DNA of 64,000 nucleotides from an uncultured Actinomycetota bacterium (GTDB lineage: Bacteria > Actinomycetota > Actinomycetes > JAHEKZ01), in NCBI GenBank assembly GCA_963829525.1, contig CAWHIJ010000003.1, positions 1,504,001-1,568,000 of the forward strand. Reading direction: 5' to 3'. The notes beneath the pieces were generated by a model. It saw only the letters and a program-made list of their open reading frames with translations, was not told where the DNA came from and did not search any database. How positions within the stretch are numbered: the first letter of the stretch is position 1; every line of letters starts with the position of its first letter. The position numbers were made by a program, and so were the translations under genes. Positions 4,231-36,017 of this stretch are shown piece after piece.

Positions 4231-4252
4231 GAGAGGTTCCCCTGGAGTGTGG

Positions 4253-5709: not shown

Positions 5710-5713
5710 TTCG

Positions 5714-6776
5714 GTGACCGTGGGGACGCCCGGTTGGCCGACCGTGATCGGAGCGCTGCTTCGGCATGAGGACCTTGACGCGGCGTCAGCCCAATGGGCC
5801 ATGGGCCAGGTGATGTCGGGCGACGCGAGCTCAGCGCAGATCGCGGCATTCGCGGTCGCGCTCCGGAGCAAAGGAGAGACCGCAGCAGAGATGTCCGGCC
5901 TGGCCGAGGCGATGTTGGCGGCGGCCCACCGCATCGAGGTGCCTGGTCCAGCTGTCGATGTCGTCGGCACGGGAGGGGATCGATCGCAGTCGGTCAACAT
6001 CTCGACGATGGCTGCACTGGTGGTCGCGGGAACCGGAGCCCAGGTCGTCAAGCACGGAAACCGGGCGGCCTCATCTGCCTGCGGCACGGCAGACGTTCTT
6101 GAAGAGCTGGGAGTGGTTCTCACGCTGAAGCCTGAGCAGGTGGCGGCTGTGGGGGCCCAGGTCGGGATCACCTTCTGCTTCGCCCAGGTGTTTCATCCGG
6201 CGATGCGTCACGCGGCCGCGCCGCGCCGCGAGATCGGCGTACCGACGTCCTTCAACTTCTTGGGGCCTCTGACGAACCCGGCCCAGCCGGTTGCCCAAGC
6301 GATCGGCTGTGCCGATCTCGCGGATGGCTCCGGTGATGGCGCAGGTCTTTGCCGAACGGGGGGCATCCGCACTGGTGTTTCGAGGTGACGACGGGCTCGA
6401 CGAGCTGACCGTTTCGACCACGTCGTCGGTGTGGCGCGTCTCCATGGGACAGGTCGAGTCGAAGACGCTTGACCCGGCACGGCTCGGGATCGCTGCCGCC
6501 CCGCTGGAGACACTGCGAGGCGGTGATCGCAGCCACAACGCCGGGGTGGTGCGGGCGCTCCTGGCCGGCGAGGAGCGTGGCCCGATCAGGGACGCCGTGC
6601 TGCTGAACGCAGCCGCGGCGCTCTCGGCGTTAGCGGCGGCAGCGGGCGAGAGTGGCGGCGATCTCGAGGACGCCATGGCCGCCGGGCTGAAGCGTGCCGC
6701 GTCCGCCATCGACTCAGGCGCTGCCTCTGACGTGCTGGACCGGTGGATCGCGGCAACGCAGTCAGTCGCCGGCTGA
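5714..6776 (+). CDS. trpD: Anthranilate phosphoribosyltransferase (frameshift near 6320)
   Basis: [32 protein letters not shown]; continues in the next frame with GDDGLDE and VLLNAAAAL. Confidence 0.95.
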
Positions 6777-8859: not shown

Positions 8860-8950
8860 GGCCCGACGGTAGGGCGGACCACCGACAACAGGGTCAGCCA
8901 CGCCGACTCGTATTGTTAAATGCTCACCGCCTGCTAATCCTGGAGGACCC

Positions 8951-9193
8951 GTGGGCATCTCGGCCCCCAGCAGCGACACTCGCTGGCGTTGCAGCCAGTG
9001 CGGCAACTTGACCCGCTTCGACGTGGTCCGGGTGAGCCGGACCCGCGAGTTCTGGCACCAGGAGCTCTCCGGCGCCCCGGTGGTCGAGGACACGCGGGAA
9101 CTCGACGGCGAGATCGAGTCGGTGGCTTGCCGCTGGTGCGCCGGCGGTGGGTCGATTGAGCTGGTGGGCCGACCGGCACGGAGAGTGATCTGA
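8951..9193 (+). CDS. Small CxxC...CxxC (zinc-ribbon-like) hypothetical protein
   Basis: WRCSQCGNLTRFDV...VACRWC; GGAGG RBS at 8942-8946. Confidence 0.75.
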   Translation: MGISAPSSDTRWRCSQCGNLTRFDVVRVSRTREFWHQELSGAPVVEDTRELDGEIESVACRWCAGGGSIELVGRPARRVI

Positions 9194-14620: not shown

Positions 14621-14800
14621 TCAGCAGTTTCCTGCTCCGTTGGTGACCTGCTGGCATGAGTCCGTGTAGGAGGCGAAGACTGTCTGGCCGAGCACGAAGA
14701 CGATGGATGCCACGACTGCGGCAATCCCCACGACGATGAGGGCGTACTCAACGGCCGAGGCGCCATCGTCGGCGACAGAGTTCCTGTGAATGTCGGTCAT
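14621..14800 (-). CDS. flp: Flp family type IVb pilin (59 aa; absent from the ORF track)
   Basis: Manual translation MTDIHRNSVADDG/ASAVEYALIVVGIAAVVASIVFVLGQTVFASYTDSCQQVTNGAGNC; G/xxxxEY Flp motif; GAGGGGG RBS. Confidence 0.9.
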   Translation of the reverse strand: MTDIHRNSVADDGASAVEYALIVVGIAAVVASIVFVLGQTVFASYTDSCQQVTNGAGNC

Positions 14801-14845: not shown

Positions 14846-14883
14846 AGCAGAAGGGCGAGACCATCGGGTCTCGCCCTTCTGCT
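14846..14883. terminator. Perfect 17-bp stem-loop between the two pilin genes
   Basis: agcagaagggcgagacc-atcg-ggtctcgcccttctgct. Confidence 0.8.
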
Positions 14884-14910
14884 ACTCACATGGTGCTCAC
14901 TGCTTTGGAA

Positions 14911-15104
14911 CTAGCAGCCCGAGTTCTGAATGCAGTCGTTGGTGGTGGTGAATGCGTCGAGGATGTTGTCCGCCGAGAGTGAACACGATGGCGGCAATGA
15001 CGGCGGCGATGGCCGCGACAAGCAGGCCGTACTCAACGGCTGACGCACCGTCATCGTTGCGAGAAGTCGAGCAGTGCGCGGACGTACTGGATCTGAGCGG
15101 TCAT
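14911..15104 (-). CDS. flp: Flp family type IVb pilin, probably the major pilin (two apparent +1 frameshifts near 15065 and 14960)
   Basis: Reconstructed MTAQIQYVRALLD.SRNDDG/ASAVEYGLLVAAIAAVIAAIVFTLG.NILDAFTTTNDCIQNSGC; AAAGGGA RBS; strong hairpin downstream. Confidence 0.85.
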
Positions 15105-15323: not shown

Positions 15324-15965
15324 CTACGAGGTAGCTTCGGGTGGTTCGATGAGGCCCGCGCGCAACGCCGCCATGATGGCCTGGGCGCGGTTGCCCGCCC
15401 CCAGCTTCTCGTAGAGCTTGGAGATGTGGGTCTTCGTGGTGGAGTCGCTGATGAAGAGGCGTCGCGATATCTGCGCGACCCCCAGGCCCTCCGCCAGCAG
15501 GTCGAGTACCTCCTTCTCGCGGGGTGAGAGCTGCGGGCCGGTTGGAGACATCCGGCGGCGCATCGCGTCGGCCAGGTCGGGTGCGGTGAAGGACCGGGGC
15601 GAGCTCGCCGCGTGACGGGCAGCGATGACGACATCGTCAGCCGGCGCGTCCTTGGGGACGAAAGCCGAGGCTCCGGCATCGAGGGCGCCGAACAGCTGGT
15701 CGTCACCGGCGTACATGGTCAGGACCACGATCCCGAGCTGGGGGTAGGTGCTGCGCGCCTCGCGGGCGGCATCGAGGCCGCTGCCGTCGGGCAGTCGAAC
15801 GTCGAAGATGACCACGTCAGGGCGGTGTTCGGCCAACTGGGTACGCGCCTCAGCCACTGACGCGGCCTCGGCGGCGACCTCGAAGTCAGCCGAGCGCTCG
15901 AAAGCGCGGCGCAGGCCCTCGCGGATCAGCTGATGGTCGTCAACGAGCAGCACGCGAATCGTCAT
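15324..15965 (-). CDS. NarL/LuxR-family response regulator
   Basis: VLLVDDH, DVVIFDVRLPD, FVPK; HTH LSPREKEVL...TTKTHISKLYEKLG. Confidence 0.95.
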   Translation of the reverse strand: MTIRVLLVDDHQLIREGLRRAFERSADFEVAAEAASVAEARTQLAEHRPDVVIFDVRLPDGSGLDAAREARSTYPQLGIVVLTMYAGDDQLFGALDAGASAFVPKDAPADDVVIAARHAASSPRSFTAPDLADAMRRRMSPTGPQLSPREKEVLDLLAEGLGVAQISRRLFISDSTTKTHISKLYEKLGAGNRAQAIMAALRAGLIEPPEATS

Positions 15966-17583
15966 GCTCGTCGTCCCTCCCCCTTGTGCCGATGCCGGTG
16001 TCGAGTGCATCCGGCTCTCGTGGTCGGACCTCCACGCTAGTGCCTCCGCCCGATCGGGTGGTGACGTTCAACGTGCATCCGGCCCGTAAGGCGCGCTCTT
16101 GCATGATTGCCATACCGAAACTGTCTTCACGTGGAGGGAGCAGACCTCGGCCGTCATCCTCGACTCGCAGGTACACGTCGGGGGCATCGATCAGGCACGT
16201 CACCCAGAGATTCTGCGCCCGGCTGTGTCGGCGGGCATTGGCGATGGCCTCCTGGGCAATGCGCAGCAGCTCTGACTCGACGGCCGGTCGAAGTCGGGTA
16301 GGCGACTCAGCGAGCTCGAGATGGATCGCGATTCCGGCGGACTCACCGATGTGGCGGGTGTGGTCGGCGAGCACGGAGGTGAGGCTGGCACCCGGGCCGA
16401 CCTCGCGACGCAGGTCGAAGATCGAGTAGCGCAGCTCACCGATGACCCGCGTCAGCTCCTCGCGAAGGCGAAGCAGGTCTGGCCGAAGGGGCTCTGTGGC
16501 CCGCGCTGCCATGTCGTCGATGAGATACCCCAGGGACGCGACTTCCTGGGCAACTCCGTCGTGGATCTCGCGCGCGAGGCGCTGCCGCTCCTCGGCAGTC
16601 GCAAGGGTGCGAACTTCGTCGAACAGCAGCGCAGCATCGAGGCGTACGGCGTCGGCGTCGGCTACTGATTGCATGTCAGCGAGCTCCCCCTTGGTCCAGG
16701 GCTGATCGCGGCGCTCGACGGCAACCAGACCGACCAAGGTGTCCCTGATGCGGATGGGGACTATGGCCCCGTTCATCGAAGGATCAGTGCCCAACGGACC
16801 ACCGACCGCCCGAACCTCTCGCTTCTCCATCACCTGGTGCCAGACGGTTCCCGCGGCGAGATCGGTGAAAAGCTCTGCATCAACACCTGGACCGAAGGCC
16901 AGCAAGACGGGTTGGCCACCGGTGCGGTAGCCGTAGACCCAACCGCGGGTCATCCCGAATCGCTCGCGGAGGTCGTCCAGGAGAGTGGAGCCGAGCGACA
17001 CCGCATCCAGACCCCCAGAGAGCTCGCGAGAGAGGTCGCGAAGCTGGACGAGCAGGCGCGCCGCGGCAGCGTAGGACTGGTCGTCGTCAGGAAGTTCGGT
17101 CTGAACACGACGGACCCACGCTGCGAGGAGTCCAACCGCAAGGGCGATCAGCGACCACTGAACTACATCGACGATGTACTCCGACCCAGCCAGGCCACCA
17201 ATCCCGGCCGCGCCGGGCGTCAGGAGGCCGAGGATGGTGGCGCCTGATGTGATCACCGCCAAGGTCCAGCCACCGATGAGCCCAGCGGAAAGTGCCGGGG
17301 TGACCAGGTAGGGCAACAGTGAAGGGTCGTACGGGTCCGCGGTCGCGATGATCAGGCCAGCGATCAGGGCCTCGACCACCGGGCGCCAGCGCCGCAGGCT
17401 CCGGGTCTGCACGGGTAGCACCGCAGCGACGGCCAGAACGCTGAGCAGGAGGAGCTGGACGATGAGCTCATCGGCCGTTCCGGTGATGGCCGCCACCGCA
17501 TACATCAGACCCAGGGCAGCCGCCCTGACCCCGATTTCGATGCGCTCATCGTCCAGTTGTCCCAGCACCCGGTCACGTACCAC
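15940..17583 (-). CDS. Membrane sensor histidine kinase (multi-TM, GAF-like, HisKA_3, HATPase)
   Basis: EERQRLAREIHDGVAQ H-box, QEAIANARRHS N-box, VEDDGRG, FGMAIMQERA, GGTSV. Confidence 0.93.
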   Translation of the reverse strand: MVRDRVLGQLDDERIEIGVRAAALGLMYAVAAITGTADELIVQLLLLSVLAVAAVLPVQTRSLRRWRPVVEALIAGLIIATADPYDPSLLPYLVTPALSAGLIGGWTLAVITSGATILGLLTPGAAGIGGLAGSEYIVDVVQWSLIALAVGLLAAWVRRVQTELPDDDQSYAAAARLLVQLRDLSRELSGGLDAVSLGSTLLDDLRERFGMTRGWVYGYRTGGQPVLLAFGPGVDAELFTDLAAGTVWHQVMEKREVRAVGGPLGTDPSMNGAIVPIRIRDTLVGLVAVERRDQPWTKGELADMQSVADADAVRLDAALLFDEVRTLATAEERQRLAREIHDGVAQEVASLGYLIDDMAARATEPLRPDLLRLREELTRVIGELRYSIFDLRREVGPGASLTSVLADHTRHIGESAGIAIHLELAESPTRLRPAVESELLRIAQEAIANARRHSRAQNLWVTCLIDAPDVYLRVEDDGRGLLPPREDSFGMAIMQERALRAGCTLNVTTRSGGGTSVEVRPREPDALDTGIGTRGRDDEHDDSRAAR

Positions 17584-17703
17584 GCCTCCACGGTGTCACA
17601 GCCGGGGGCGAATCGAGTCGATCCACGCGCGCTCATGCCGCCAAACGTGGGCTATCTGGCAAAGTCCCGGCGGTGGAGGCTGCCTTGTGATTCCATTTCA
17701 GAC

Positions 17704-18705
17704 ATGTCTGACCAGTTGTTCTCCCTCAGTGACGTGCTCGATGCCACAGATCGACGCCTGGATGCCGGCCTGACCGCCGCCGCACGCGTGACACCCACCG
17801 GGTTCCATCCCCTCGACACCTATCTCGGTGGAGGCCTGCGTGCGGGCGAGCTCACCCTTCTGGGAGGGCCGCAGGGTCTGGGCAAGACGACGATGGCCCT
17901 GCAGCTTCTTCGCAATGTCGTGGTGAGTGGCGGCACCGGGCTCTACTTCTCGTTCGAGCACGACCCAGCCACGGTGCTCGAACGGTTTGTCGCCATCGAG
18001 GCGGCGGCTCGCTATGGCATCGATGCCGTCCAGCTTCGGCGCATCCGTGAGGCGATGGAGAGCTTGGACGGCCACAGCGGAGGGTTGGCCGAACGGCTGG
18101 CCAACACCCCTGGGGGAGCCGAGGCCGTTGACGCCGTGGGGAAGTACGCACCCCGTCTGCACATTCACCGCGCCAGCGGTGGGGCCACCGACCTCGCCTC
18201 GATCCGGTCGATGGTGGACGCGGTCATCGCCGAGAGTGGCGCTCCACCGGTGGTCGTCGTCGACTACCTGCAGAAGGTTCCTGTGCTTGATCGACCCCTC
18301 TCCGAAGAAGACCGCATCACCACCGTTGCGCAGGGGCTGAAAGACCTCGCCCTGGAACGCGATGTCCCGGTCCTGGCAGTGGTTGCTTCTGACAAGGAAG
18401 GGATCACCAGCGGTCGCAGGATGCGGGTGCACCACCTGCGCGGAGCTGCGGTGTTGGCCTACGAGGCCGACGTTGTACTCGTGATCAACGACAAGTACGA
18501 CGTGGTCGCGCGACACCACCTGGTGTTCGACGTCGGCAATGCCGAGCGCTTCCGCGACTACGTCGTGGTCACGATCGAGAAGAACCGCACGGGAATCGAC
18601 CGGGTCGACCTGGAGTTCCGGAAGCGATTCGAGCAAGGTCGATTCGAGACCGAAGGTCGGCCGGTGGCAGAGCAGCTGGTGGACGAGCGGGTGTTCGTCG
18701 AGTGA
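17704..18705 (+). CDS. Stand-alone DnaB C-terminal-like (RecA-fold) ATPase
   Basis: TGFHPLD, Walker A GPQGLGKT, FSFE, VVVDYLQ, LKDLALERDVPV, YEADVV, IEKNRTG; lacks the DnaB N-terminal domain. Confidence 0.85.
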   Translation: MSDQLFSLSDVLDATDRRLDAGLTAAARVTPTGFHPLDTYLGGGLRAGELTLLGGPQGLGKTTMALQLLRNVVVSGGTGLYFSFEHDPATVLERFVAIEAAARYGIDAVQLRRIREAMESLDGHSGGLAERLANTPGGAEAVDAVGKYAPRLHIHRASGGATDLASIRSMVDAVIAESGAPPVVVVDYLQKVPVLDRPLSEEDRITTVAQGLKDLALERDVPVLAVVASDKEGITSGRRMRVHHLRGAAVLAYEADVVLVINDKYDVVARHHLVFDVGNAERFRDYVVVTIEKNRTGIDRVDLEFRKRFEQGRFETEGRPVAEQLVDERVFVE

Positions 18706-18708
18706 CGC

Positions 18709-19993
18709 TCAGGTCCTTGGGAAGTCTTGGATGTCGATGTGCCTGGCTAACAGCCTGGCCAGCGACCTGACATCGATCGCTCGCTGCAGGAGTGGGCCGG
18801 CCTCCTCGGCCAGGCCAGCCAGCGCGGCCAGGGATGCCTCGCTGAACGGCTCTTTGCGGTCGCGGGACAGCACCAGCACCGCGTGCACCTGAGTGACCGG
18901 AACCGCCATGAGGTGAGTGCGGCTCGCGAGCGGCGCACCGCGAAGATCCTGGCGGGCGACGTCACTCTCTTCGATCAGGATTCCCTTGCCTGCGTTCGCG
19001 ATTCTCTCGACGAGCCACGAATCTGGAGCGAGCTGGAGGCGGTACTCCAGCGGCCGCAGTGCGACTCCGGCCGCGACGCGCCATATTGATCCCGTCCGGG
19101 ACGATAAGTGCTCCGGCATCGGCCATGGTGCGACTGACCGCGTCCTCGACAACGACCGTCGCGGCTTCCTCGAGCGTGTAGAAAAGATGCGCTTCCTCAA
19201 GCAGAGCATGGACGGGATCGGCTGCAGAGAGGCTGTCCCCGGCGACTGTCCGCTTCGCCAGATCAGCAGTGGGTGGCTCGGAAGGGTCGAGGCGCAACGG
19301 GGGCGATTCGTAGCCTTCGCGTTCAGCATTCACAGCGTCGCGACGACGTCGACGCCCCGTGCGTTGAGGGACCGGGAGTGGCGCTGGTTCAGGGAGGGGC
19401 GCGGGTTCGGGGAGTGGTTCTGGTTCGGGGAGTGGTTCTGGTTCGGGGAGTGGTTCTGGTTCGGGGAGTGGAGCTGGTTGGGGGACCGGCGAGGATGGCG
19501 GAGGGGCCGGCAGCGGCGGCAAGACTTCCTGATCGAGCAGGTCGGGGTCCGGAAGTATTGCGAACTCTGGTACCTCGTCGAGCAGACGCTGGTCTGCCGG
19601 TTCGGAGCTTGTCTCGTGCCCGACGGGGCTTGGTGCCATGCGAGGGTGACGGAGGACCTCCGTCACGGCCTTCTGGAGCCGTTGGGGGTCGAGGGGAAGC
19701 GAGAGCAGGTCGACACCGGGAAGGTCCGCGACGTCCGCATCGATCCAGGCCCGATCGTACGCTGCCACCACAACGACGGGAACCCACCGGCCCTGGGCTC
19801 TCAGGTCACCGACGACGCGGCTGGCGACGGAAGGAGATCCGAGATCGAGCACCAGTGCGTCAACACCGACGTCTTCGCCGCTCGCAAGCCACTCGTCCAG
19901 CTCGTTCGCTCGGATCTCGATCAGACTGTGCTTGGTCGCCGACAACGCCATCGACATGGCCGGGTTTCGCGAGACGAGCGCTAGCCGCGCCAT
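18709..19993 (-). CDS. Pseudo-receiver, Pro/Glu linker and GAF-like domain protein (frameshift near 19088)
   Basis: N-terminal alpha/beta pattern with ALVLDL and PVVVVA; PEPEPL repeats; C-terminal ADAGALIVPDG/IWRVAAG...LMAVPV...VLVLSR...PFSEASLAAL pattern of GAF domains. Confidence 0.7.
19386..19475. repeat. 18-nt tandem repeat encoding PEPEPL
   Basis: GGTTCGGGGAGTGGTTCT three times exactly (19404-19457) with degenerate flanking copies. Confidence 0.9.
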
Positions 19994-19996
19994 GGA

Positions 19997-20935
19997 TCAC
20001 GACCCAACGATGATGGACTGGTAGATGCTGATGGCCGCCGGACCGAGTACGACGACGAACAGAGCTGGAAGGATACAGAAGATGAGCGGGAAGAGAATCT
20101 TTACCGGAACCTTCTGCGCTTGTTCCTCGGCGCGCTGGGAGCGTTTGACTCGCATCTCTTTGGCCTGAACTCGCAGAACATTGGCGATCGGGATGCCGAA
20201 CGCGTCCGCCTGAACCATTGACGTGACGAAGCCTTGAAGCTCTTCAACGTCGGTGCGATCCCCGAGCGCGCGCATCGCGTCCGTGCGACCCATCCCGATC
20301 TGCATCTCTTGCAGCACGCGGAAGAACTCATCAGCGAGCGGTCCATCGGTGTTACGCGCAACCTGCGAGACGGCGGCGTCGAACGCGAGCCCTGCCTCAA
20401 CGCTGATGGTCAGCAGGTCGAGCGCGTCCGGCAGGTCCTTGCGGATCTGGTCGCTGCGGTTGTAGGCGCTTTGGTAGAGCACGATGTTGGGCACGTAGAA
20501 GCCCAGAAGCGTGATGCCAGCGGCGATCGCGACGGTGGGCAAGAGCCCCCCGACAAGTGCCCCGAGAGCGATTCCGAGCAGCAGCCCGGCAAACAGGCCG
20601 AGGACCTTGAAAGCGATGACTCGATCCACGTCCCACCCGGGGGGATTACCCGCAAGGTCGAGCTTGCGTGCCATCCGTTCGGACTGGTCGCCGGCCGTGA
20701 ATCGGCGGCCGATAGTCGTCAGTCGACCCATTGCAGGCGACATCACTCGGTCGCCGAACGGCTTGTCGAGCTCGGTCTTCATGTGGTCAGGTGCTGTGTC
20801 TATGGCGCGGACGGCGGCCAAGGACCGATTGACCGCCTGGCGCTCAGACGTGATGGTGCCGATGGTGGTCAGCAGCAGGACGATGGCGAGGAAGACTGCG
20901 GCCAGGCCGAGAAGTAGAACGAGTTGCGACGGCAT
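19997..20935 (-). CDS. tadC: Tad pilus inner-membrane platform protein (T2SSF family)
   Basis: LPDALDLLTISVEAGLAFD, QADAFG, AEEQAQKVPVKILFPLIFCILP. Confidence 0.93.
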   Translation of the reverse strand: MPSQLVLLLGLAAVFLAIVLLLTTIGTITSERQAVNRSLAAVRAIDTAPDHMKTELDKPFGDRVMSPAMGRLTTIGRRFTAGDQSERMARKLDLAGNPPGWDVDRVIAFKVLGLFAGLLLGIALGALVGGLLPTVAIAAGITLLGFYVPNIVLYQSAYNRSDQIRKDLPDALDLLTISVEAGLAFDAAVSQVARNTDGPLADEFFRVLQEMQIGMGRTDAMRALGDRTDVEELQGFVTSMVQADAFGIPIANVLRVQAKEMRVKRSQRAEEQAQKVPVKILFPLIFCILPALFVVVLGPAAISIYQSIIVGS

Positions 20936-20936
20936 G

Positions 20937-22889
20937 TCAGACCTCCACCTTGACGACCTTGCGAAGCCACAATCCGCCGACGGCAAGGAGGAGAAGGCCC
21001 ACGATGACCAGCACCCACCCGGCAGGAGTCGTGACCAGCGGTTGGAGGTACTCCGGGCGAACGAGCACCATGTAGAGCGCGAAAGTCACCGGAAGCATGG
21101 CCAGGATCCAGGCCGAAAGGCGCCCCTCGGCAGACAGCACCTGCACCTGTCGACGGAGTCGCTCACGTTCGCGCAGGGTGGCCGAAACGGTGGAAAGCAC
21201 CTCAGCGAGGTTACCTCCCACTTCACGTTGGATTCTGATTGCCATGACCACCCAGGTGAAGTCGACGCTCTGCATGCGTTGCGCGATCCCATCCAGCGCG
21301 TCCTCGAGCTCAACACCGAGTCGGGTCTCGACAAGAGCGCGGTTGAACTCGGTGGAGATCGGAGGTTTCCCCTCGCGCACCACAGTGTCGATCGCTTGAG
21401 GCATCGAATAACCGGCCGACAGGCTTCCGGCCATCAGCTGGAGGGTGTCAGGTAGCGCGGCAAGGAATGCTTTGCGACGCTGGCCCGCCTTGCGCGAGAG
21501 GTAGAGCCACGGAATGAGGCCACCGAAGAACATGCCGATGATCGTCACGAGGATTCTGCCGCTGGACAGCAAGAAGAGCACGAGGCCGGCGCCGAGGACT
21601 ATCCCCACGTGGATGAGCAGCCACTCTGCTGGTTTGAGTGGCACCGCTGCAGACTCCAGACGACCCCCAAGTCGCGACTCGAAGTCCCGTTGGGCCACTA
21701 CGCGCCCGGCAAGCTCAACCGCGCTTCTGGCGACCTGAGTGTCGCCCAGCACCGTCGTCTCCTGTTCCTTCACCGGCTGTCGCCCGCCCAGGGTGTAGAT
21801 CGACAGGCGACGACGCACGCCGCTGCTCTGCCCTCGCTCCGGGTCGGTGGCTGAGGAAATCGCGACGTAGACGAGGATCAGCAAGGCGATGCCGACGGCG
21901 ATCACGGCGATCCAGATCAGGTTGTCCGAGACCGCCTGGATCGGGCCGGGGTCGGGAGCGGGTGCCGGCTTGATGTCCTCGGGGGCCGGGATGTCGGCGG
22001 GGGCTATTGAGACGAATGCTTGGTCGGTGACGGCGGCCCCATCGACGAGGACGGTGACCGAAATCGTGGCAGAGTTCTTGGTGAAATCCTCGGGCAGGGG
22101 AGCGGTGAGAACTAGGCGGTTGCTGATGCTTGAGGCCGCATCGTTGAATGCGGTAACCAGTTCGGCCGTGTCGGCCGCCTGGTAGACGGTCCCACCGGTG
22201 GCATCGGCGATATCGGTCAGCGCCGCAGTCTGGCCCGAGCTCTCGCCGAACGAAACCACGTCGAAGCGAGCCTCTGCATTCTCGGCCGACTTGGTTGCCT
22301 CTGCCAGCGTGGCCGTACTGCCGCGGTCGGCCCCATCTGAGAGCAGAAGTGCCGAACCTACGTCGGCGCTCTTCAACTCGTCCGCCGCGAGGACGACTGC
22401 GTCGTAGAGCACCGTTTGCTGTGCCGTGGCTAGACCATCGATGGCCTCAACAAGAGCGTTGCGGTCGGTGGTCGGGGCTACCCGCACCTCAGTGGAGCTG
22501 TCGAAAGTGATGAGTCCGATCTCGACTTCCGCAGGTACCGCCTCCACGAACTGCTTGGCTGCGTCCTGTGCACTGGCAAGCTTGCCGTTCTCGTTCATCG
22601 AGTCGCTGGTGTCCATCACCAGATACGTTGTCTGCGTGATGTCGCTGTTGTCACTCGCAGCCTCAACCGAAGGGTCGAGCGGCTGGCCGTCCAAAGACGC
22701 TGACACATTGTTGGTGTCGACGTCGGCCCCGGGAGCTAGGCCGCTGAGGCCGAGGACGACGCTGAGCTCGCCATCGTTTACCTCAACCTGCTCGATCGTG
22801 GAGCTGGTCTCGGCAATCGCCGTTCCGGCGCCCGCAAGGAGGATGAGCGCTGCGATGGCGGCGCCGGTCAGGGTCCGACGCACGCTCAT
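20937..22889 (-). CDS. tadB: TadB with an N-terminal signal peptide and VWA domain
   Basis: Signal peptide ending AIA, MIDAS DTSDS, LYDAV, LLSDG; C-terminal LPDTLQLMAGSLSAG, IQREVGGNLAE, LSAEGRLSA. Confidence 0.9.
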   Translation of the reverse strand: MSVRRTLTGAAIAALILLAGAGTAIAETSSTIEQVEVNDGELSVVLGLSGLAPGADVDTNNVSASLDGQPLDPSVEAASDNSDITQTTYLVMDTSDSMNENGKLASAQDAAKQFVEAVPAEVEIGLITFDSSTEVRVAPTTDRNALVEAIDGLATAQQTVLYDAVVLAADELKSADVGSALLLSDGADRGSTATLAEATKSAENAEARFDVVSFGESSGQTAALTDIADATGGTVYQAADTAELVTAFNDAASSISNRLVLTAPLPEDFTKNSATISVTVLVDGAAVTDQAFVSIAPADIPAPEDIKPAPAPDPGPIQAVSDNLIWIAVIAVGIALLILVYVAISSATDPERGQSSGVRRRLSIYTLGGRQPVKEQETTVLGDTQVARSAVELAGRVVAQRDFESRLGGRLESAAVPLKPAEWLLIHVGIVLGAGLVLFLLSSGRILVTIIGMFFGGLIPWLYLSRKAGQRRKAFLAALPDTLQLMAGSLSAGYSMPQAIDTVVREGKPPISTEFNRALVETRLGVELEDALDGIAQRMQSVDFTWVVMAIRIQREVGGNLAEVLSTVSATLRERERLRRQVQVLSAEGRLSAWILAMLPVTFALYMVLVRPEYLQPLVTTPAGWVLVIVGLLLLAVGGLWLRKVVKVEV

Positions 22890-24277
22890 CGCCCCGTGAA
22901 CTTCTCGAAGGCGAAGAGGGACGGGTCGACGCTGACGCCAGAGGCTGTGAGCTTGTCGAGGAACTTAGGACGAAGCCCGGTTGACTTCAAGGTTCCGATC
23001 GAGCGGCCGTTCTCGTCGAACCCCGCTCCGTGGTCGAAGAGGAAGAGGTCCTGGAGGGTGATCACATCACCTTCCATACCGACCACTTCGGAGACCGCGG
23101 TGATGTGTCGCGTCCCGTCCTTGAACCGGGTCTGCTGGACCACCAGATCGATGGCGCTGGCAACCTGCTCTCGAATCGCGCGCACCGGCAGGTCGACCCC
23201 GGCCATCAGGACCATGGTCTCGATGCGGGCAAGCACGTCACGAGGCGTGTTGGCGTGAACGGTACAGATCGACCCGTCGTGACCGGTGTTCATCGCCTGA
23301 AGCATGTCCAGTGCCGCCGCGTCACGAACTTCACCGACGACGATGCGGTCCGGGCGCATACGCAGGGCGTTTCGCACGAGGTCGCGAACCTTGACCTCAC
23401 CGCGACCTTCGATGTTCGGTGGACGTGCCTCGAGCCGAAGCACGTGGTCTTGGTGCAGCTGCAGCTCTGCGGCGTCCTCGATCGTGACGATCCGCTCGTT
23501 CTCGGGGATGAAAGAAGACAGCACGTTGAGCGTGGTCGTCTTTCCGGCGCCCGTGCCGCCGGAGACCAAGATGTTGAGCTTGCCCCGCACACATGCGTCG
23601 AGGAAGTCCGCAACCGACCGCGTCAGGGTGCCGAAGCCGATCAGGTCCTCGATCCGGTACGGGTCCGCGGCGAACTTTCGGATGGTGAGCATCGAGCCAT
23701 CGAGAGCAAGCGGCGGGACGACTGCGTTGACACGGCTGCCGTCGGGAAGCCGGGCGTCGACCATGGGGCTGGACTCGTCGACGCGACGTCCCACACGCGC
23801 CACGATCTTCTCGATCGTGCGGCGCAGATGGTTCTCGTCGGTGAACTCGCCATCGGTCTTGTAGAGCCGGCCGGCACGCTCAATCCAAATGTCGCTGCTG
23901 CCGTTGACCATGACCTCGGTGATGTCGGGGTCACGCAGGTAGGGCTCGAGAGGGCCATAGCCGAGGATGTCGTCGGCGATCTCTTGGGCGATTCGGGCCC
24001 GGTCGGCTGTGGTGAGAGGTGTGTCATCTTGGCTCAGAACCTCTTGCAGCGCCTGGCGGACCTTCTGCTCCAGCTCGCTCTGCGTCTGCCGTGAGTCGTA
24101 GAGCTTGGGGCCAAGGTTGTCGAGCAGAGCTTGGTGCACTGTGCGCTTGAGGTCGGCAAAGGGGTCGCTGGACTTGCGCTTGGCTAAGGGCTTGCCGATC
24201 AGGGTGTCGTCGGCCTCCACGCGCTCGGTCGGAGCCTTCTGTCGCCGGGCTTCGGCGAGGCGGTCTGCCAGGCTCAT
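22886..24277 (-). CDS. tadA: Tad pilus assembly ATPase TadA/CpaF
   Basis: GGTGAGKTT, TIEDAAEL, LRMRPDRIVVGE, AMNTGHDG. Confidence 0.96.
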   Translation of the reverse strand: MSLADRLAEARRQKAPTERVEADDTLIGKPLAKRKSSDPFADLKRTVHQALLDNLGPKLYDSRQTQSELEQKVRQALQEVLSQDDTPLTTADRARIAQEIADDILGYGPLEPYLRDPDITEVMVNGSSDIWIERAGRLYKTDGEFTDENHLRRTIEKIVARVGRRVDESSPMVDARLPDGSRVNAVVPPLALDGSMLTIRKFAADPYRIEDLIGFGTLTRSVADFLDACVRGKLNILVSGGTGAGKTTTLNVLSSFIPENERIVTIEDAAELQLHQDHVLRLEARPPNIEGRGEVKVRDLVRNALRMRPDRIVVGEVRDAAALDMLQAMNTGHDGSICTVHANTPRDVLARIETMVLMAGVDLPVRAIREQVASAIDLVVQQTRFKDGTRHITAVSEVVGMEGDVITLQDLFLFDHGAGFDENGRSIGTLKSTGLRPKFLDKLTASGVSVDPSLFAFEKFTGR

Positions 24278-25485
24278 GAGGTCTTGGCCTTCCTGCGAAG
24301 GAGACCGCGGCGGTCGCTGCGGAGCTCAGGAGGGATGGAGGAGTCGGTGTGACGCCCAGTGAGTACATGCTTCTCGGCGAACTGACGGATCGCCACGCTG
24401 ACCGGATGCTTGGGGTCGTCGTAGATGATCGGCACGCCCCGGTTGATGGCAGCGGGCACGTCTCGCGAGCTGGGGATCTGGATCGAGATCGGAACGCGCA
24501 GGGTCTTCTCTACCTCGTTGAGGGCCAGTCCGACCTTGGAGTCGGAGCGGTTGAGGACAACGGCCCACTTCTCTCGGGGGAAGTTGATCTCCTCGAGGGT
24601 CTCGAGTGTCAGCTTGAGGTTCTTCAGGGCCGGGATGTCAAGAGTCGCGATCAGTGCGATGAGGTCGCTCTGGTCGAGCGCCTCGAGCACCTGCTCGTCG
24701 AATGCCGGGGGGGTGTCGACGACGACGTAGTCGAACTCTTGGCGGAGGATTGACAGGATCTCTCGTACCAGGTCTGCAGTGATCCCCCTGTTCGACCCGG
24801 GGTCCAGGGGAGCTACCAGTGTTGACAGTCCCGGGATGTTGTTGTGCGGGGTGAGCAGTGACTCGACTGCCGGGGCGTCGAGACCGTCGCCGAGCGAGAC
24901 GGCGTCGGCGATGGTGTGAGCCGGGAAGAGCTGCAGAGCGATCGCGACGTCGCCGAAGGAGAGGTCGAGGTCGACGAGACAGACGCGATTGCGTCCTCCC
25001 TCTGTGAGGGCTACCGCAAGGTTCGTCGACAGCGTGGTCTTGCCGCAGCCACCCTTGGCCGAGAACACCGTGACCAAGATGGCGTGGTCGACCTCGTCCT
25101 CGGGGTGCGCGGCCCCCGGAACTGTCTCACGCATTGACTGGGCGAGCTGCTTCACCCGGGCTACCGCCGAGTTGATTCCGGCGAGGTCGCGCTCTTCGCA
25201 CACTTCTCGAACCCCAGAACGCAGGGCATCGGCCAGCACGGAGGTATCGACCCTGCGACGAACAAGGACTACTCCGAGACTCTGCCGAGAGACCCTCATC
25301 CCAGCGGCAAGCTCAAGCGCGCTCTCGAGGTCGACAGAGGACCCGATCACAACGGCGTCCTCGCCCAAGTGGGTGTCGAGATGGCGCCGGAGTGCGTCGA
25401 GCGTCGGAAGCACCGTGGCATCGGCACCGAGTGCCGAGCGAAGTGACTCCGCGGTGTTGGCGTCGTAATCGAGGATGACAGTCAT
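24274..25485 (-). CDS. cpaE: CpaE/TadZ-like MinD/ParA ATPase with an N-terminal receiver-like domain
   Basis: Deviant Walker A SAKGGCGKTT, LVDLDLSFGD, VVDTP; ATG at 25485 overlaps the cpaB TGA. Confidence 0.88.
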   Translation of the reverse strand: MTVILDYDANTAESLRSALGADATVLPTLDALRRHLDTHLGEDAVVIGSSVDLESALELAAGMRVSRQSLGVVLVRRRVDTSVLADALRSGVREVCEERDLAGINSAVARVKQLAQSMRETVPGAAHPEDEVDHAILVTVFSAKGGCGKTTLSTNLAVALTEGGRNRVCLVDLDLSFGDVAIALQLFPAHTIADAVSLGDGLDAPAVESLLTPHNNIPGLSTLVAPLDPGSNRGITADLVREILSILRQEFDYVVVDTPPAFDEQVLEALDQSDLIALIATLDIPALKNLKLTLETLEEINFPREKWAVVLNRSDSKVGLALNEVEKTLRVPISIQIPSSRDVPAAINRGVPIIYDDPKHPVSVAIRQFAEKHVLTGRHTDSSIPPELRSDRRGLLRRKAKTS

Positions 25486-26226
25486 CAGCGGAACAGGTTC
25501 TGAGTGGTGGTGGCCCCGCCGGTACGCACCTTGGTTCCGTCTCCGAGAAGTGCGAAGTAGAGGGCGCCTCCGGTCTGCGCGTTGATGATCTTCTCGGCCT
25601 CTTGCTGGTCGACCGACAGCGGTGAGGATCGCCAAGGGGATCTCCTCAGTTGTCGAGTCGCCTTGGTCGGTCGTGGTTGTCTGTGTGGTCAGCGTGGTAG
25701 CGCCGACACCGATTACCTCGACCTCGGGCAGCAACGCAGAGGTCACGTCGATGTCGGTGGTCGCTGCTGTCCGGCCAGTGAGAGTTGCGAAGACAGCAAC
25801 TCGTGATCCGGGAACCACGAATCCAGCGACGCGCTCTGGGTCTCCGAGCTGGACCGAGATGGCCAGCTGACCCTTGGGAACCTCGAGTCCAGAGGCCGCC
25901 TGCGCGTTGCCGAACATCTGCGCCAAGATCTGCTGCCCCGGAAAGATTGGTGCGAGCGCAACCTGGTCGGAGATGATCGTGATGTCAGTCAACGCTCCTT
26001 CGGCTGCAGCCGAAGCCGGAACCTCTTGAATCTCGAAGGCTCCGTCCTCAGAAGCAGTGGAGGCTGTTGTCCCTGCGGCCACCTCCTGGGTGGCCACGAG
26101 CACCTGGACCGGAGTGGCGTCGGCCTGCGCACGTTCGTCTGCACCTCGCACGTACACGAAGATGAGAACGGTGCCGAGCGCGGCAACGACCAGAGCGGCA
26201 ATGAGCAAAAGAGTTCTACGTCCCAT
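25485..26226 (-). CDS. cpaB: Flp pilus assembly protein CpaB/RcpC (extra base near 25620)
   Basis: N-terminal TM, SAF segment VLVATQEVAAGT, VAGFVVPGSRV; corrected C-terminus LTLSVDQQEAEKII...LYFALL...QNLFR-stop. Confidence 0.88.
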
Positions 26227-26233
26227 AAGACCT

Positions 26234-26261
26234 CTATCGGAGTGTGACGTGCTCGGTTGAG
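26234..26261 (-). promoter_or_regulatory. Sigma-28 (FliA/WhiG)-like promoter of the cpaB operon
   Basis: CTCAAC-N14-TCCGATAG, 7 nt before the cpaB ATG. Confidence 0.55.
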
Positions 26262-26452
26262 GGAACAAGGCGGACAAATTTCTTGAGCGGGTGCTCCAGC
26301 GGCCATGGTCGGCACTGCCTGCGACACACCATGAGCCCCCGAGATCCCCTGGCGACCGCTGTCGCCAATGGTGCATCGTCCCATGGCACCTTGTCCGTTA
26401 CGCGCAGGGACTCCCGGTCTGTCCCTGGTAGCAAACACCTAGTTATATCGAA

Positions 26453-32390: not shown

Positions 32391-32909
32391 ATGAAGCGAC
32401 TGCGACCGACGATTCGAGGAAGATCCGACGGCGGGGCGACCGCTGTCGAGTTCGCCCTCGTCGTTCCCATTCTTCTGGTGCTGGTCTTCGGGATCATCGA
32501 CTACGGACTCTGGTTCTCCGACTCACTGTCCTCGCGTCAAGGGGTGCGTGAGGCCGCGCGGCAAGGAGTGGTTGCGAACTTCGGTGATACGACCAGCTGT
32601 GGGCTCAGTGGGGCATCAGGCGACTCGAACTCCCGCGCCCTCATGTGCACGGCGCAGAACCGAATCGGTGGCATCGCAGGCGAACCGGCCATCAAGGTGT
32701 CGGCTCCGGAAGGCTGGGTTCGCGGCAAGCCGCTTATTGTGTGTGCGCAGATGAAAGGAGGAGCCGGCACCGGGCTTGTCCCGCTGCCCAATGACCGCAT
32801 CATCCGCACTGAAGTGCAGATGGCCATCGAGCAGGCTCCGCCCGGTACCGCCTTCATCGGCGGCTCCGAGTCACCTCCCGCCGGTGCGAACTGGGACTGG
32901 TGCGGATGA
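32391..32909 (+). CDS. tadE: TadE-family minor pilin
   Basis: G/ATAVEFALVVPILLVLVFGIIDYG, VREAAR. Confidence 0.9.
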   Translation: MKRLRPTIRGRSDGGATAVEFALVVPILLVLVFGIIDYGLWFSDSLSSRQGVREAARQGVVANFGDTTSCGLSGASGDSNSRALMCTAQNRIGGIAGEPAIKVSAPEGWVRGKPLIVCAQMKGGAGTGLVPLPNDRIIRTEVQMAIEQAPPGTAFIGGSESPPAGANWDWCG

Positions 32910-34278
32910 TGGGCAGACTGCGCGACGAAGGTGGGGCAGTAGCGGTCCTCACGGCGCTTCTGGCTGTCGTGCTTCTCAGCATGGCGGCATTGGTGGTTGA
33001 CCTCGGTATAGCCAGGGACAGTCGCCGCCAAGCGCAGAACACCGCCGACTCCGCGGCCCTGGCTGCCGCTAACGCGCTGTATGCCACGCGTGCTCCGAAT
33101 CTGAACCAGCCCGGCGACTTCGTCGCTGCCGTGAATGCAGCCAAGCGATACGCGGCTGAGAACTACGGGACGACCGAAGCTGAGTGGCGCGGCTGCTCAA
33201 CAGACCAGGCGCTCGACTATCAGAATCCCGGGACTTGGACGAACTGCATCACCTTCGACTCCTTTCTCTATCCCAGGCAGGTCCTGATCGTCGTTCCGGT
33301 GCGTGAGCAGCCGGTCTTCTTCGGTGGCGTTGTCGGGTACGAGGGTGCTCGATCGGCGCACTGGCGCAGGCGCGGCTCGACCCGGGAGGTCGCCGCGTGT
33401 GCACCTTCTGCGTTTTGGGTGACGACGTGAACGTGATCCAGAACGGCAACGTCAACGTCACCGGCGGCAACATGTGGTTCAACGGCGACGTCGCCATGGG
33501 GCCTAACGGAGTTCGGCGAACTCCAGCTCCGGGAACTGTTGTTGGTGATGACGGTTCGACTTTCGTAGATGGTGGCAACATCTACGTGTCCGGCGCGATC
33601 ACTAGCAACTGCACCAAGGTCCAGGGCGGTGGTGCACAGGTCGGTCAGCCGCGGGTTGTTGACCCACTCGCAGCGCAGGTGTTGCCGTTCGTCACGCAGA
33701 GCGCGTTGGTGGGAAAGACGGTCAGTCCCTGCTCGGGTGGCCCCGGGATCTATGGCGACGTCAATCTTCGGCCAGGTACTTGCACGCTCATTCCGGGTCT
33801 CTACGTGTTCACCGGAAAGTTGGATCTGGCTGGTGGGGCGACGCTAATCGGCAACGGGGTCACCTTCTACTTCACCTGCGGTGAGGGGACGGTGCCGCGG
33901 GCGTGCAACTCACCCGGTGAGGACGGCGGCCGGATCGACTCCACGGGTACGCCCGAGTACCAGTTGACAGCCCCGCCTCTGCGCTCCACGCACCCCACGG
34001 TCGCGTCCGAGCTCTACGGCTACTCGCTCGTGTTCGATCGCTACAACACGTCAGTGCAGCGACTCCGAGGAAATACGAACTCGTTCGTCTCGGGAACGAT
34101 CTACGGCGTGAATGCGACCTTGGACATCGGCGGAACGGCGGGCAGCACGACGCCGTTCAGTTCCTGGGTGGTCATCGGAACCTTGAAGATGAACGGTTCG
34201 CCAGCGAGCCTGACCGTCAACTTCGACGCGTCGAAGAACGCCAAGGCAAGTGAAGGCGCACGCGGGTTGGTGCGGTAG
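32906..34278 (+). CDS. TadG-like pilin/adhesin with Gly/Asn-rich beta-repeat C-terminal domain (frameshift near 33345)
   Basis: G/AVAVLTALL...VDLG...QNTADSAALAAA; downstream frame has PGIYG, PGLYVF, GVTFYF, GTIYG. Confidence 0.82.
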
Positions 34279-34301
34279 GGCTCGTTCTGTCGGTCTTGGC
34301 G

Positions 34302-35406
34302 CTACTTCCAGAGCTGGGCGCTCAGGATCGCATTCTTGCAGTTCGATGCGGTGAAGTTGCAGGTTAACCCGCTGCCGGAGTAGCCGGTGGTGTAGTCGAC
34401 GTAGCGGTACTGGATGAATCGGACCGCGTTCGGTCGAGCGTTGATGTAGGGAGCAGCCTTCACCGGGTCGTAGCAGCTGCCGAACTTGTACTTGGTGCGA
34501 TCAAGGTAGTACCCGCACACCTTCGCGCTGACGAAAGCCCACGACGGTGAACCGGCCGTTGCTACCCGGTCCCGATCCTGGCGTATAGCCGCTGACGACC
34601 GGGAAGAGCACGACCTGGTCCACAATCGAGTCAAGCTGCGTTTGGACAGGTGCCAGGTTGTTGCCGGGGTCACCAGGAACCACGGGTGGCGACACGGATA
34701 CGGGCTTGGGATACCCGTTCTGCGTCCAGTCCTGAATGTCTCCGGTGGGGTTTGAGCCACCATCGAAATCCACGATCCCCCAGTTGCCGGCGGCCGTTGA
34801 GTTGCAGAGTCCAATCTTGTTGTCCAGGTCCATGACGAACGTCTCGCCAGGTGTTGCCTTTGCCTGGTCGACGACGCTGTTGCAGGCGGCGTAGGGACGC
34901 AGCCCGCTAACGGAGAGCAGCGGGACGACGGCGGCAGTTGCCGATCGCTTCGGTGCGATGCTCGAGATGTTGGCGACACCACCGAAGAAGACCGGGAGGT
35001 CACGGCTGTTGTCGACGCGGACTTCGACCCGACTGTCGCCAATGCATGTGATGACCACGGAATCGACGTTGGAGTTACCGCTCAAGTCGTTGGCGGCATT
35101 GGTGGAGTTGGCTGCGCCTTCGGCCGCTGCTTGCGCGGCTGCTCGCTGGCTGGCTGTCCACCCCGCACATCCTTGACCCCCTCCAAGAATCGGCAGGCCG
35201 CCGGACTTCGCGACCGCAACGGCTCGGGCCGCGTCGAGGGCGGCCGAGTCGGCGGCAACAGAGAGCTGTCGCTTGACGGCGTAGGCATTGCCCAAGTCGA
35301 CGGCGAAGGCGGCCATCAAGACGAGGAGCACGGACAAGAGCGCGACGATCACCGCGACGGCACCATCGTCTCTCGGTTGGCGGATGGCTCTTAGTTGAAC
35401 TCGCAC
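34302..35406 (-). CDS. Second TadG-like pilin/adhesin (frameshift near 34540; start approximate)
   Basis: G/AVAVIVALL...AVDLG...QLSVAADSAALDAA; GNWGIVDF, PGDPGN, VLFPV, VVGF. Confidence 0.82.
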
Positions 35407-35900
35407 TTGTACACCGCCTTGGATGTCAAGGTGAACTGATTCGGGAGCCCTGGGACCGGCAAGGGAAGAATTAGCTTTGCCGGGTAGGTGGCGGTGACCA
35501 CGATGCTCTGCTGGGCATTGGTCGTTGCGTTGATCGAGCCGGTGCACACCGCTGGCGAGGTACTGGCCGGGTTGTTCCCCGTCCCGCATGGTGTGGTTGA
35601 GGCCGACCGCACGACCTTGACGTTGATGTCAGTGGTGGCCATGGCGATGGCAGGCCCCGTCGAGTTGCGGACGCCGGAAACGACACCCGCGCATGACTTC
35701 TCGAATGACGTTGAACCTTCCACAACCGCGAGTCGGGCGCCTTGGCGGACTCCGTTGTTCAGGGCGAGCTGCTGCGCGAAGAGGGTGCCGTAGGAGATGA
35801 TGCCGAACGCAAGAATGAGCAGAATCGGGAGTACCAGAGCGAACTCGACGGCGGACGCGCCGTCGTCACGTCGCCTCCGCGGCCTGAGGCGAGCGATCAT
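35391..35900 (-). CDS. tadE: Second TadE-family minor pilin
   Basis: G/ASAVEFALVLPILLILAFGIISYG, VRQGAR; AAGGGGG RBS. Confidence 0.9.
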   Translation of the reverse strand: MIARLRPRRRRDDGASAVEFALVLPILLILAFGIISYGTLFAQQLALNNGVRQGARLAVVEGSTSFEKSCAGVVSGVRNSTGPAIAMATTDINVKVVRSASTTPCGTGNNPASTSPAVCTGSINATTNAQQSIVVTATYPAKLILPLPVPGLPNQFTLTSKAVYKCEFN

Positions 35901-36017
35901 GGGTCCCCCTTGCGGGCGGCGTTCGCCCATCCGGACTATCAAGGTCTTACCGAAAGTGTCCACTGGACCGGGGACCTGCGACAGGATACTCCCCATGTTC
36001 ACCCGGTTGGAGGACAG

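Follow-up and report, generated by a model that had tools for sequence, protein, structure and literature searches.

For ring ATPases of helicase superfamily 4 (SF4), the DnaB type, hardly any role is known besides that of replication helicase, apart from RadA in recombination. In replicative DnaB the motor domain is combined with an N-terminal collar domain (PF00772), which binds primase. The minimal SF4 helicases, such as the T7 gp4 domain (1e0j) and the SPP1 G40P ATPase domain (3bh0), have a ring built from the RecA core only and serve phage or plasmid replication. Here a gene encoding a stand-alone DnaB-type motor domain is compared with these systems. The gene lies on the plus strand at positions 17704–18705 of a 64,000-nucleotide stretch of DNA from an uncultured Actinomycetota bacterium (assembly GCA_963829525.1, contig CAWHIJ010000003.1, positions 1,504,001 to 1,568,000), referred to below as the window, and it is nested in a locus for Tad/Flp pili.

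Two further described systems are relevant to this locus. RadA/Sms is a non-replicative SF4-like ring whose KNRFG motif is described as unique to RadA among SF4 proteins; the lysine acts as a piston and the arginine as the arginine finger of the neighbouring subunit, mutants in either residue lose ATPase activity stimulated by single-stranded DNA (ssDNA), helicase activity and ssDNA binding, and the N-terminal domains of DnaB and RadA set their partnerships (PMC5512693, in excerpt). The gene for ArlH/FlaH, a single RecA-fold ATPase, accompanies those of a type IV filament machine with an ATPase of the TadA family and a platform protein of the TadB/C family (PMC6668835, in excerpt). The same excerpt names archaeal Epd pili as the closest relatives of Tad pili and makes FlaH the secondary ATPase of Epd pili, a position taken by TadZ in Tad loci. 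The KaiC-like protein ArlH binds ATP and regulates ArlI (bioRxiv 10.1101/2021.03.19.436134, in excerpt).

The gene is translated without interruption by stop codons into a protein of 333 amino acids that, by Pfam and fold search, comprises the DnaB C-terminal (SF4 helicase) domain and nothing else. It is intact and collinear with relatives at 88–94% identity, unlike several genes of the window that are split between frames. An earlier reading of this DNA from its letters alone (the sequence-only reading) had described a DnaB motor domain that lacks its N-terminal domain, retains four motifs, has VASDK in place of the DnaB SQLNR motif and is transcribed divergently from a histidine kinase gene, and each of these points was borne out. 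The four retained motifs are Walker A, GPQGLGKT (residues 55–62), the catalytic-glutamate motif FSFE (residues 82–85), Walker B, DYLQ (residues 187–190), and the K-N-R-x-G finger motif EKNRTG (residues 292–297). VASDK occupies residues 227–231 and HLRGAAVLAYEAD residues 244–256.

HMMER residue alignment with Geobacillus DnaB was used to locate the altered motifs. The DnaB H3 segment ALSQLSRS pairs with AVVASDKE, which puts Ala228 at the position of the H3 glutamine, and Geobacillus KRPMMSDLRESGSIEQDAD pairs with RRMRVHHLRGAAVLAYEAD of the window protein. The H4 motif has been reshaped to give a basic loop: where replicative DnaB has LRESG..EQDAD, the family has LRG(S/A)..YEAD, preceded by a basic RRxRxHH run. 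The loop keeps an arginine aligned with the arginine of DnaB LRESG, presumably the residue that contacts ssDNA phosphate in the DnaB–ssDNA structure. In DnaB, the H3 glutamine couples the γ-phosphate to the DNA loops.

Conservation of these positions was assessed in 93 family representatives with 31–88% identity. The ATPase set is close to invariant, with K61 (99%) and T62 (96%) in Walker A, E85 and H86 (both 95%) in the catalytic-glutamate region, and D187 (100%) and Q190 (99%) in the Walker B region. The finger motif is equally constrained (K293 100%, N294 92%, R295 100%, G297 98%), as is the H4 region (R239 98%, E254 96%, D256 100%). Alanine stands at the position of the DnaB H3 glutamine in 87% of representatives. 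Conservation is more variable in the basic loop before H4 (R238 56%, R241 86%, H244 71%, R246 73%). Judged by its motifs, the protein is apparently a catalytically complete SF4 ATPase.

Profile comparisons place the protein in the DnaB class and outside its replicative branch. Pfam DnaB_C (PF03796) scores 77.3 bits (cut-off 27), with residues 31–310 covering profile positions 3–251 of 255. The NCBIfam model for replicative DnaB (TIGR00665) gives 72.1 bits against a cut-off of 385.25, which is below equivalog level, and the remaining NCBIfam DnaB equivalogs all fall far under their cut-offs. KaiC and RadA were reached by sequence searches through the P-loop region only: Pfam KaiC (PF06745) scores 39.7 bits over profile positions 2–70 of 231, the KaiC equivalogs reach at most 31 bits against a cut-off of 408, and RadA TIGR00416 reaches 32 bits against 403 with the match confined to that region. 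FlaH NF004723 gives 18.4 bits against a cut-off of 194, and Pfam RecA 18.7 bits. The best-scoring profile is the phage DnaB-like helicase family PHROG 19 (124.5 bits). The RecA core, Walker A, catalytic glutamate, Walker B, Lys/Arg finger and linker helix that characterise SF4 are all present, and a Pfam scan of the protein gave no match to a RadA-type zinc finger or a Lon-like domain. A defence-system role was considered and dropped, as PADLOC models gave only a 20-bit match to mad8.

The predicted structure agrees with this assignment. An AlphaFold model built from the 93 family representatives has a mean predicted local distance difference test score (pLDDT) of 95.5 and a predicted TM-score (pTM) of 0.93. 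It replaces a first model from a 15-sequence alignment of close relatives, which was discarded (pLDDT 62, with the C-terminal third below 50). Among the Foldseek matches listed against the PDB, all are DnaB or gp4-type SF4 helicases: Vibrio and E. coli DnaB, Geobacillus DnaB with ssDNA, the G40P ATPase domain (3bh0) and T7 gp4 (1e0j). RSF1010 RepA, which we take to be a further collar-less SF4 helicase, is absent from the fold matches listed. E values range from 6.6e-19 to 1e-14 at a query TM-score (TMq) of about 0.7, about 20% identity and about 320 of 333 residues aligned, so that the N-terminal helix is included and appears as the counterpart of the DnaB linker. The top match, 9dls_C (E 6.6e-19, TMq 0.72), has 320 aligned columns including the linker. 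The viral fold library BFVD gave comparable matches to phage DnaB-like helicases, at 14–22% identity.

In the case of replicative DnaB, then, the window protein has its closest relative by sequence and fold, and it keeps the linker helix, Walker A, the FS.E glutamate, DYLQ, the K-x-R finger and the H4 arginine. It differs in lacking the collar domain, in the H3 and H4 changes, in an added insert of about 25 residues and a conserved 30-residue C-terminal extension ending in ...EQLVDERVFVE, and in the position of its gene outside a replication context. RadA/Sms resembles it as a ring with the K-N-R-x-G signature, of which KNRTG is the window variant, but has a C4 zinc finger and a Lon-like C-terminal domain that the window protein lacks. 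The minimal SF4 helicases share the RecA-core-only architecture, whereas the window gene belongs to the chromosome, is conserved by vertical descent and lies in no replicon module. With ArlH/FlaH and KaiC the protein shares the P-loop region only, and it keeps a helicase-type finger and a basic loop; it is also, by our estimate, about 100 residues longer than ArlH. Taken on sequence and modelled fold, the protein is a collar-less member of the DnaB/SF4 superfamily, distinct from replicative DnaB. Without a collar, it could not act as a primase-coupled replicative helicase.

The absence of the N-terminal domain does not appear to result from a misplaced start codon. PF00772 has no Pfam match on the 333-residue protein or on a longer reading of 382 residues. 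That sole longer reading, from a TTG at 17557, would overlap the start of the divergent kinase gene at 17583, and only 120 bp of intergenic DNA separate that start from the DnaB-like gene. Nearly all of the best 120 homologues are 331–336 amino acids long. The short spacer, the homologue lengths and a conserved block just 5' of the start codon together leave no room for such a domain.

The family to which the protein belongs was delimited by a profile search of 1.84 billion representatives, which returned 280 clusters at E ≤ 1e-30, 18,521 at E ≤ 1e-10 and 60,684 at E ≤ 1e-3. The best 150 matches score 180–549 bits, against about 70 bits or less for true DnaBs of the PDB with the same profile. 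Members carry source labels of Actinomycetes, Nocardioidaceae and Mycobacteriales; more distant ones are labelled Chloroflexota (Limnocylindria, Anaerolineae, Caldilineae) and Zixibacteria, although such labels are sparse. Database names range from 'DnaB-like helicase C-terminal domain-containing protein' and 'AAA family ATPase' to an automatic 'replicative DNA helicase'. Full-text literature was searched for DnaB-like or KaiC-like proteins, DnaB paralogues and the tad/Flp context, and no paper on such a protein was found. By these comparisons, it is a distinct family of Actinomycetota and Chloroflexota without an assigned function.

Some relatives of 484–586 amino acids combine the family motifs with the DnaB N-terminal domain. 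PF00772 was found by Pfam scan in two members, P0153 (54.5 bits) and P0152 (26.2 bits), and precomputed Pfam annotation places the domain in 16 of the 37 listed relatives of at least 457 amino acids. The combination in P0153 and P0152 argues for a helicase ancestry of the family. In a tree rooted on three plasmid DnaBs, the family forms one clade (support 100) on a long branch, within which one sub-clade (96) contains the collar-bearing forms and another (99) the collar-less forms from actinobacteria. Of the three outcomes that would have undermined the sequence-only reading, namely clustering with ordinary phage or replicative DnaB, an N-terminal domain recovered after polishing, and lack of tad linkage, none occurred. 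A search for fused forms of 584–2000 amino acids found none at E ≤ 1e-25, which is weak evidence.

The setting of the gene was then compared across genomes. A scan of 185,579 species genomes yielded 332 loci with a relative, of which the best 80 were analysed by tblastn with the window neighbours and by a search for the Flp motif; counts of single neighbours are limited to loci with enough flanking DNA. In 37 of the 80 loci the DnaB-like gene stands within a tad/flp locus, read from the opposite strand and outside the operon. In the window it is a lone plus-strand unit between two minus-strand groups, cpaB-cpaE, tadA, VWA-tadB, tadC and a GAF-domain gene on one side and kinase, response regulator, flp1 and flp2 on the other. 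Among the nested loci, TadC was found in 29 of 29, TadA and CpaE each in 24 of 24, the GAF protein in 28 of 29, the kinase in 31 of 33, the response regulator in 30 of 33, and one to three Flp motif genes in 27 of 30 (missing in L007, L028 and L042). The nesting persists in L031, where the GAF gene is missing. It also persists in L028 and L042, which have an FtsK/SpoIIIE-type ATPase upstream instead of the kinase and retain the DnaB-like/GAF/tad side. The nested loci come from metagenome-assembled genomes labelled Nanopelagicales, Jiangellales, Frankiales/Frankiaceae, Mycobacteriales and Nonomuraea. One locus, L007, is labelled as a Myxococcota bin; its gene is 90% identical to that of the window and shares its actinobacterial neighbourhood, except for the regulator and flp genes, which are lacking. 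Mis-binning or mis-assembly of an actinobacterial contig is the probable cause.

The packing around the gene is tight on both sides. The kinase-to-DnaB-like spacer measures about 100–130 bp across nested loci and contains conserved blocks. Tail to tail, the stop codons of the DnaB-like and GAF genes are 3 bp apart in the window (18705/18709); the median gap is 7.5 bp in 34 loci, and some pairs overlap. Scanning gave terminator-like sites at 17669–17684 (+) and, within the gene, at 18497–18509 (−), and none between the two genes. With the stop codons this close, and overlapping in some loci, and no such site between them, the two transcripts must be expected to overlap. The linkage is real and tighter than the sequence-only reading had stated, and it includes two flp genes downstream of the response regulator which that reading had overlooked. 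Table 1 gives the positions of all features.

Table 1. Features of the DnaB-like gene, its protein and the surrounding Tad/Flp locus (window coordinates unless residues are given)
Feature	Position	Strand	Basis or remark
Stand-alone DnaB_C (SF4) ATPase gene	17704..18705	+	translation, Pfam/NCBIfam, model, fold search, alignments
Linker-like N-terminal helix of the protein	residues ~8-20
RecA core of the protein
Family-specific insert of the protein	residues ~262-286
Conserved C-terminal extension of the protein	residues 301-333
Divergent control region shared with kinase operon	17584..17703	.	120 bp
Conserved block ACGGTGTCACA	17590-17600		few bases upstream of kinase start codon; conserved across distant loci
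Conserved block TGTGATTCCAT	17686-17696		ends 7 nt before ATG; no Shine-Dalgarno sequence
Membrane histidine kinase	15940..17583	-	GAF, HisKA_3, HATPase_c; divergent from DnaB-like gene
NarL/LuxR-type response regulator	15324..16010	-	REC + GerE; Pfam
flp pilin gene 1	14911..15103	-	leader, then ...DDGASAVEYGLL...; spread over three frames, two apparent indels
flp pilin gene 2	14621..14800	-	59 aa, ...DDGASAVEYAL...; Flp_Fap 29.8 bits, E 5e-7
Convergent GAF neighbour	18709..19993	-	N-terminal domain of unknown family, Pro-rich linker, C-terminal GAF
TadC	19997..20986	-	T2SSF platform protein; Pfam
TadB with fused N-terminal VWA domain	20937..22889	-	T2SSF; Pfam, NCBIfam
TadA/CpaF secretion ATPase	22886..24277	-	T2SSE 223 bits; TIGR03819 347 bits vs 373 cut-off
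CpaB (RcpC) fused to CpaE/TadZ-like MinD-type ATPase	24274..26376	-	Pfam, NCBIfam
Second tad block, TadE-like/TadG-like pseudopilin genes	32391..35589		32391-32909 (+), 32900-33430 (+), 34501-35589 (-)

Within the shared control region, a block of the form TG-N-T-N-C-N-AT, represented in the window by TGTGATTCCAT, ends 6–8 nt 5' of the start codon of the DnaB-like gene in 16 of 16 aligned loci, again with no Shine-Dalgarno sequence. It departs from the usual TANNNT form and is possibly the promoter of a leaderless mRNA. A scan with the sigma-70 consensus found no promoter. The block on the kinase side, ACGGTGTCACA, is a possible operator or promoter element. Its exact sequence occurs once in the window, and a single site with one mismatch inside qcrB is at chance level.

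Several neighbouring features deserve separate mention. The convergent neighbour had been described as a REC-GAF protein; the GAF part stands by Pfam, and the receiver part does not, as no receiver match was obtained even with the intact orthologue in L016 (11006–12595, −), a single open reading frame (ORF) of 529 amino acids. In the window this gene is split over two frames (18962–19993 and 18709–19329), with the frame shift near 19090–19100, directly after ...ALIVPDG. The Flp_Fap score of flp2 falls just short of the 32.2-bit cut-off, and the G/ASAVEY prepilin motif is present. Between flp1 and flp2 lies a perfect hairpin with a 17-bp stem (14848–14885, −; −40.2 kcal/mol, z −7.7), which probably serves to terminate or attenuate transcription past the first pilin gene. 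An Rfam scan of 14.0–20.5 kb returned only a mir-761 match, dismissed as a chance palindrome on this hairpin. The VWA-TadB and CpaB-CpaE fusions are unusual for a tad locus, and they are kept in related loci.

Elsewhere, the window is made up of a core block conserved in actinobacteria, with qcrCAB/ctaE, trpD, NlpC/P60, GT4, aroG and PASTA (pknL-like) kinase genes. Some core genes are broken into adjacent ORFs, among them qcrC and ctaE (fragments including 3669–4778) and trpD (5693–6388 and 6291–6776). The split genes (trpD, ctaE, qcrC, flp1 and the GAF neighbour) are probably assembly indel errors of the unpolished long-read type rather than pseudogenes. The DNA-related genes nearest to the DnaB-like gene encode a DnaQ-like exonuclease-domain protein (7105–9093) and ada/ogt (47.6–49.6 kb). 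An EEP-family protein (35742–36701) was considered as a competence nuclease and dropped; its start is likely internal and no signal peptide was recognised by eye.

The SF4 fold, the linker helix, the invariant ATPase set, the basic loop and the collar-bearing relatives together point to an oligomeric ring that moves on single-stranded nucleic acid. Assembly of such a ring would occur through the retained linker helix. ATP would be bound at subunit interfaces by K61/T62 of Walker A, with E85 as catalytic residue and D187 of Walker B, and K293 and R295 of the K-N-R-x-G motif would be supplied in trans by the neighbouring subunit. Hydrolysis would then drive the strongly basic loop R238-R239-x-R241-x-H243-H244-x-R246, the equivalent of DnaB H4, along a single-stranded nucleic acid held in the channel, most probably ssDNA. 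The C-terminal tail is a likely partner-binding element.

The reading that we tentatively prefer, at somewhat below an even chance, is that this ring is a DNA motor coordinated with the pilus. It is suggested by the nested, divergent and convergent placement of the gene. The gene is transcribed divergently from the kinase-regulator-flp group out of the shared 120 bp and converges on the tail of the tad assembly operon, and its expression would be coordinated with that of the pilins and assembly genes. The same placement may allow transcriptional interference with read-through from the tad operon. The outcome would be a pilus-linked handling of DNA, for example uptake or processing of ssDNA.

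A plausible setting for such a role is provided by the actinobacterium Micrococcus luteus, in which Flp/Tad pili are required for natural transformation (PMC4322843, in excerpt) and a sensor kinase beside cpaB/cpaE affects transformation or competence (PMC8467076, in excerpt). A term search of the accessible text of PMC4322843 for helicase, KaiC and DnaB returned no mention of them.

ComFA and ComM, the cytoplasmic DNA motors of natural transformation with which such a role invites comparison, belong to superfamilies other than SF4: ComFA is an SF2 DEAD-box protein and ComM is MCM/AAA+-like. Their likeness to the window protein is confined to the proposed role, an ATP motor acting on incoming ssDNA in a type IV filament system, and we know of no actinobacterial counterpart of either. 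A stronger version of the preferred reading would make the ring an integral cytoplasmic component of the Tad/Flp system, a motor that receives or drives ssDNA in uptake or transfer, takes the place of ComFA/ComM and is induced together with the pilins when the neighbouring kinase and regulator act on the shared divergent promoter. This version is improbable as it stands.

Several observations weigh against coupling to the pilus, and they bear equally on the first alternative, that the protein is a housekeeping non-replicative helicase or translocase, RadA-like and active in recombination, repair or fork processing, whose position beside tad is inherited gene order. The structural and motif evidence fits this alternative as well as it fits a pilus-coordinated motor, and the K-N-R-x-G signature recalls RadA directly (PMC5512693, in excerpt). 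Members of the family are also widespread outside this lineage, Chloroflexota and forms with the DnaB N-terminal domain among them. Moreover, in 43 of the 80 loci no tad, kinase or Flp gene lies closer than 10 kb. In 24 of these, from Nocardioidaceae, the gene stands alone on the opposite strand between rplA and rplJ (for example L038, 8932–11902); in 11 it lies between UvrD-like and XPB helicase genes, which are repair helicases; and in six, from Intrasporangiaceae/Dermatophilaceae, just upstream of dxr-rseP. Two loci, L039 and L064, are left unassigned. Upstream of dxr-rseP, two or three tandem paralogues occur in L012 (8878–12110), L013, L051 and L067, which hints at a mixed ring.

Constraint on the protein is unchanged after relocation. 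Comparison of 36 nested with 47 relocated sequences (L039, L042 and L064 left out, L042 being later counted as nested) showed no fixed differences and a mean column entropy of 1.00 versus 1.07. This equal constraint indicates that the protein does not need the tad neighbourhood in cis. The 43 relocated loci form one clade (49 rows including paralogues) in two rooted trees, with support of 95 and 93. This pattern suggests one relocation event and an ancestral nested arrangement. However, an approximately unbiased (AU) test does not reject monophyly of the nested group (p 0.60), and ancestral nesting is for that reason not claimed.

The region of about 20 kb around the gene is also syntenic overall and lies inside the conserved core chromosomal block. 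The flanking genes for GT4, an M48 peptidase and an ABC ATPase are syntenic in the nested loci as well, so part of the conserved linkage is plain conservation of gene order. Adjacency to tad could be historical, the gene being outside the tad operon. A second good copy of ACGGTGTCACA was sought across the window, for example before the tad operon, and none was found; the block therefore does not support a shared regulon. Profile scans of the ORFs detected no com genes in the window, and loss of the H3 glutamine could mean weakened DNA coupling.

Set against this, the nesting is kept in 37 loci from several labelled orders or families with packing tight to the base pair, it survives a swap of the upstream neighbour, and it exceeds loose synteny. 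The zinc finger and Lon-like domain that define RadA are missing. A housekeeping role is thus a serious possibility, though on the unlikely side.

A second alternative, the one put forward by the sequence-only reading beside an ssDNA-handling partner, is a RecA-fold ring repurposed away from nucleic acid, which would dock on the TadA/CpaF hexamer, the kinase or the GAF protein as a pilus switch like ArlH/FlaH. The gene is indeed nested in a tad locus beside a two-component system and a GAF protein, and the whole family shares the lost H3 glutamine and the altered H4. Archaeal Epd pili offer a precedent, with FlaH as secondary ATPase where Tad has TadZ (PMC6668835, in excerpt), and autophosphorylation of ArlH controls its binding to ArlI (bioRxiv 10.1101/2021.03.19.436134, in excerpt). 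However, homology to ArlH and KaiC does not extend beyond the P-loop region, and the fold matches listed are all DnaB or gp4. The arginine finger, the catalytic glutamate and the equivalent of the basic channel loop are strictly kept, relatives carry the DnaB collar domain, and 43 of the 80 genes are away from tad. The tad operon ends beside the window gene, which is on the other strand, and already includes TadZ/CpaE. The proposal of an ArlH-like switch is accordingly not upheld and is now doubtful. Sequence and fold point to DnaB/SF4, and the ArlH/FlaH analogy appears less likely than a ring motor on nucleic acid, so that of the two original suggestions the ssDNA-handling partner seems to fit the data better.

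The last alternative, a replicative helicase, active or vestigial, that came from a phage, plasmid or integrated element, is largely refuted and hardly credible: DnaB_C proteins of 285–350 amino acids without the N-terminal domain are common in viruses (Atlas clusters) and PHROG 19 is the best-scoring profile, but no phage, integrase, replication or replication-initiator gene was found among the 62 ORFs scanned, as the sequence-only reading had stated for the vicinity of the gene, base composition resembles that of the neighbours (GC3 0.78), chromosomal synteny is conserved in a largely vertical pattern, a search of 72,556 plasmids returned no family member and eight matches, all of at most 31% identity, and identity to phage helicases in the fold matches is 14–22% only.

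These results describe a family of DnaB-type proteins that is widespread, strongly conserved and catalytically intact by sequence, that has shed its collar and whose DNA-sensing motifs are rewired. Tad pili are the DNA-uptake organelle of the sole actinobacterial model of natural transformation, and no cytoplasmic DNA motor has been assigned there. The locus presents a testable candidate, either for the motor of DNA uptake or for a bacterial counterpart of the FlaH-type secondary ATPase. If it should prove to be neither, the gene would still represent an unstudied family of non-replicative helicases in two major bacterial phyla.

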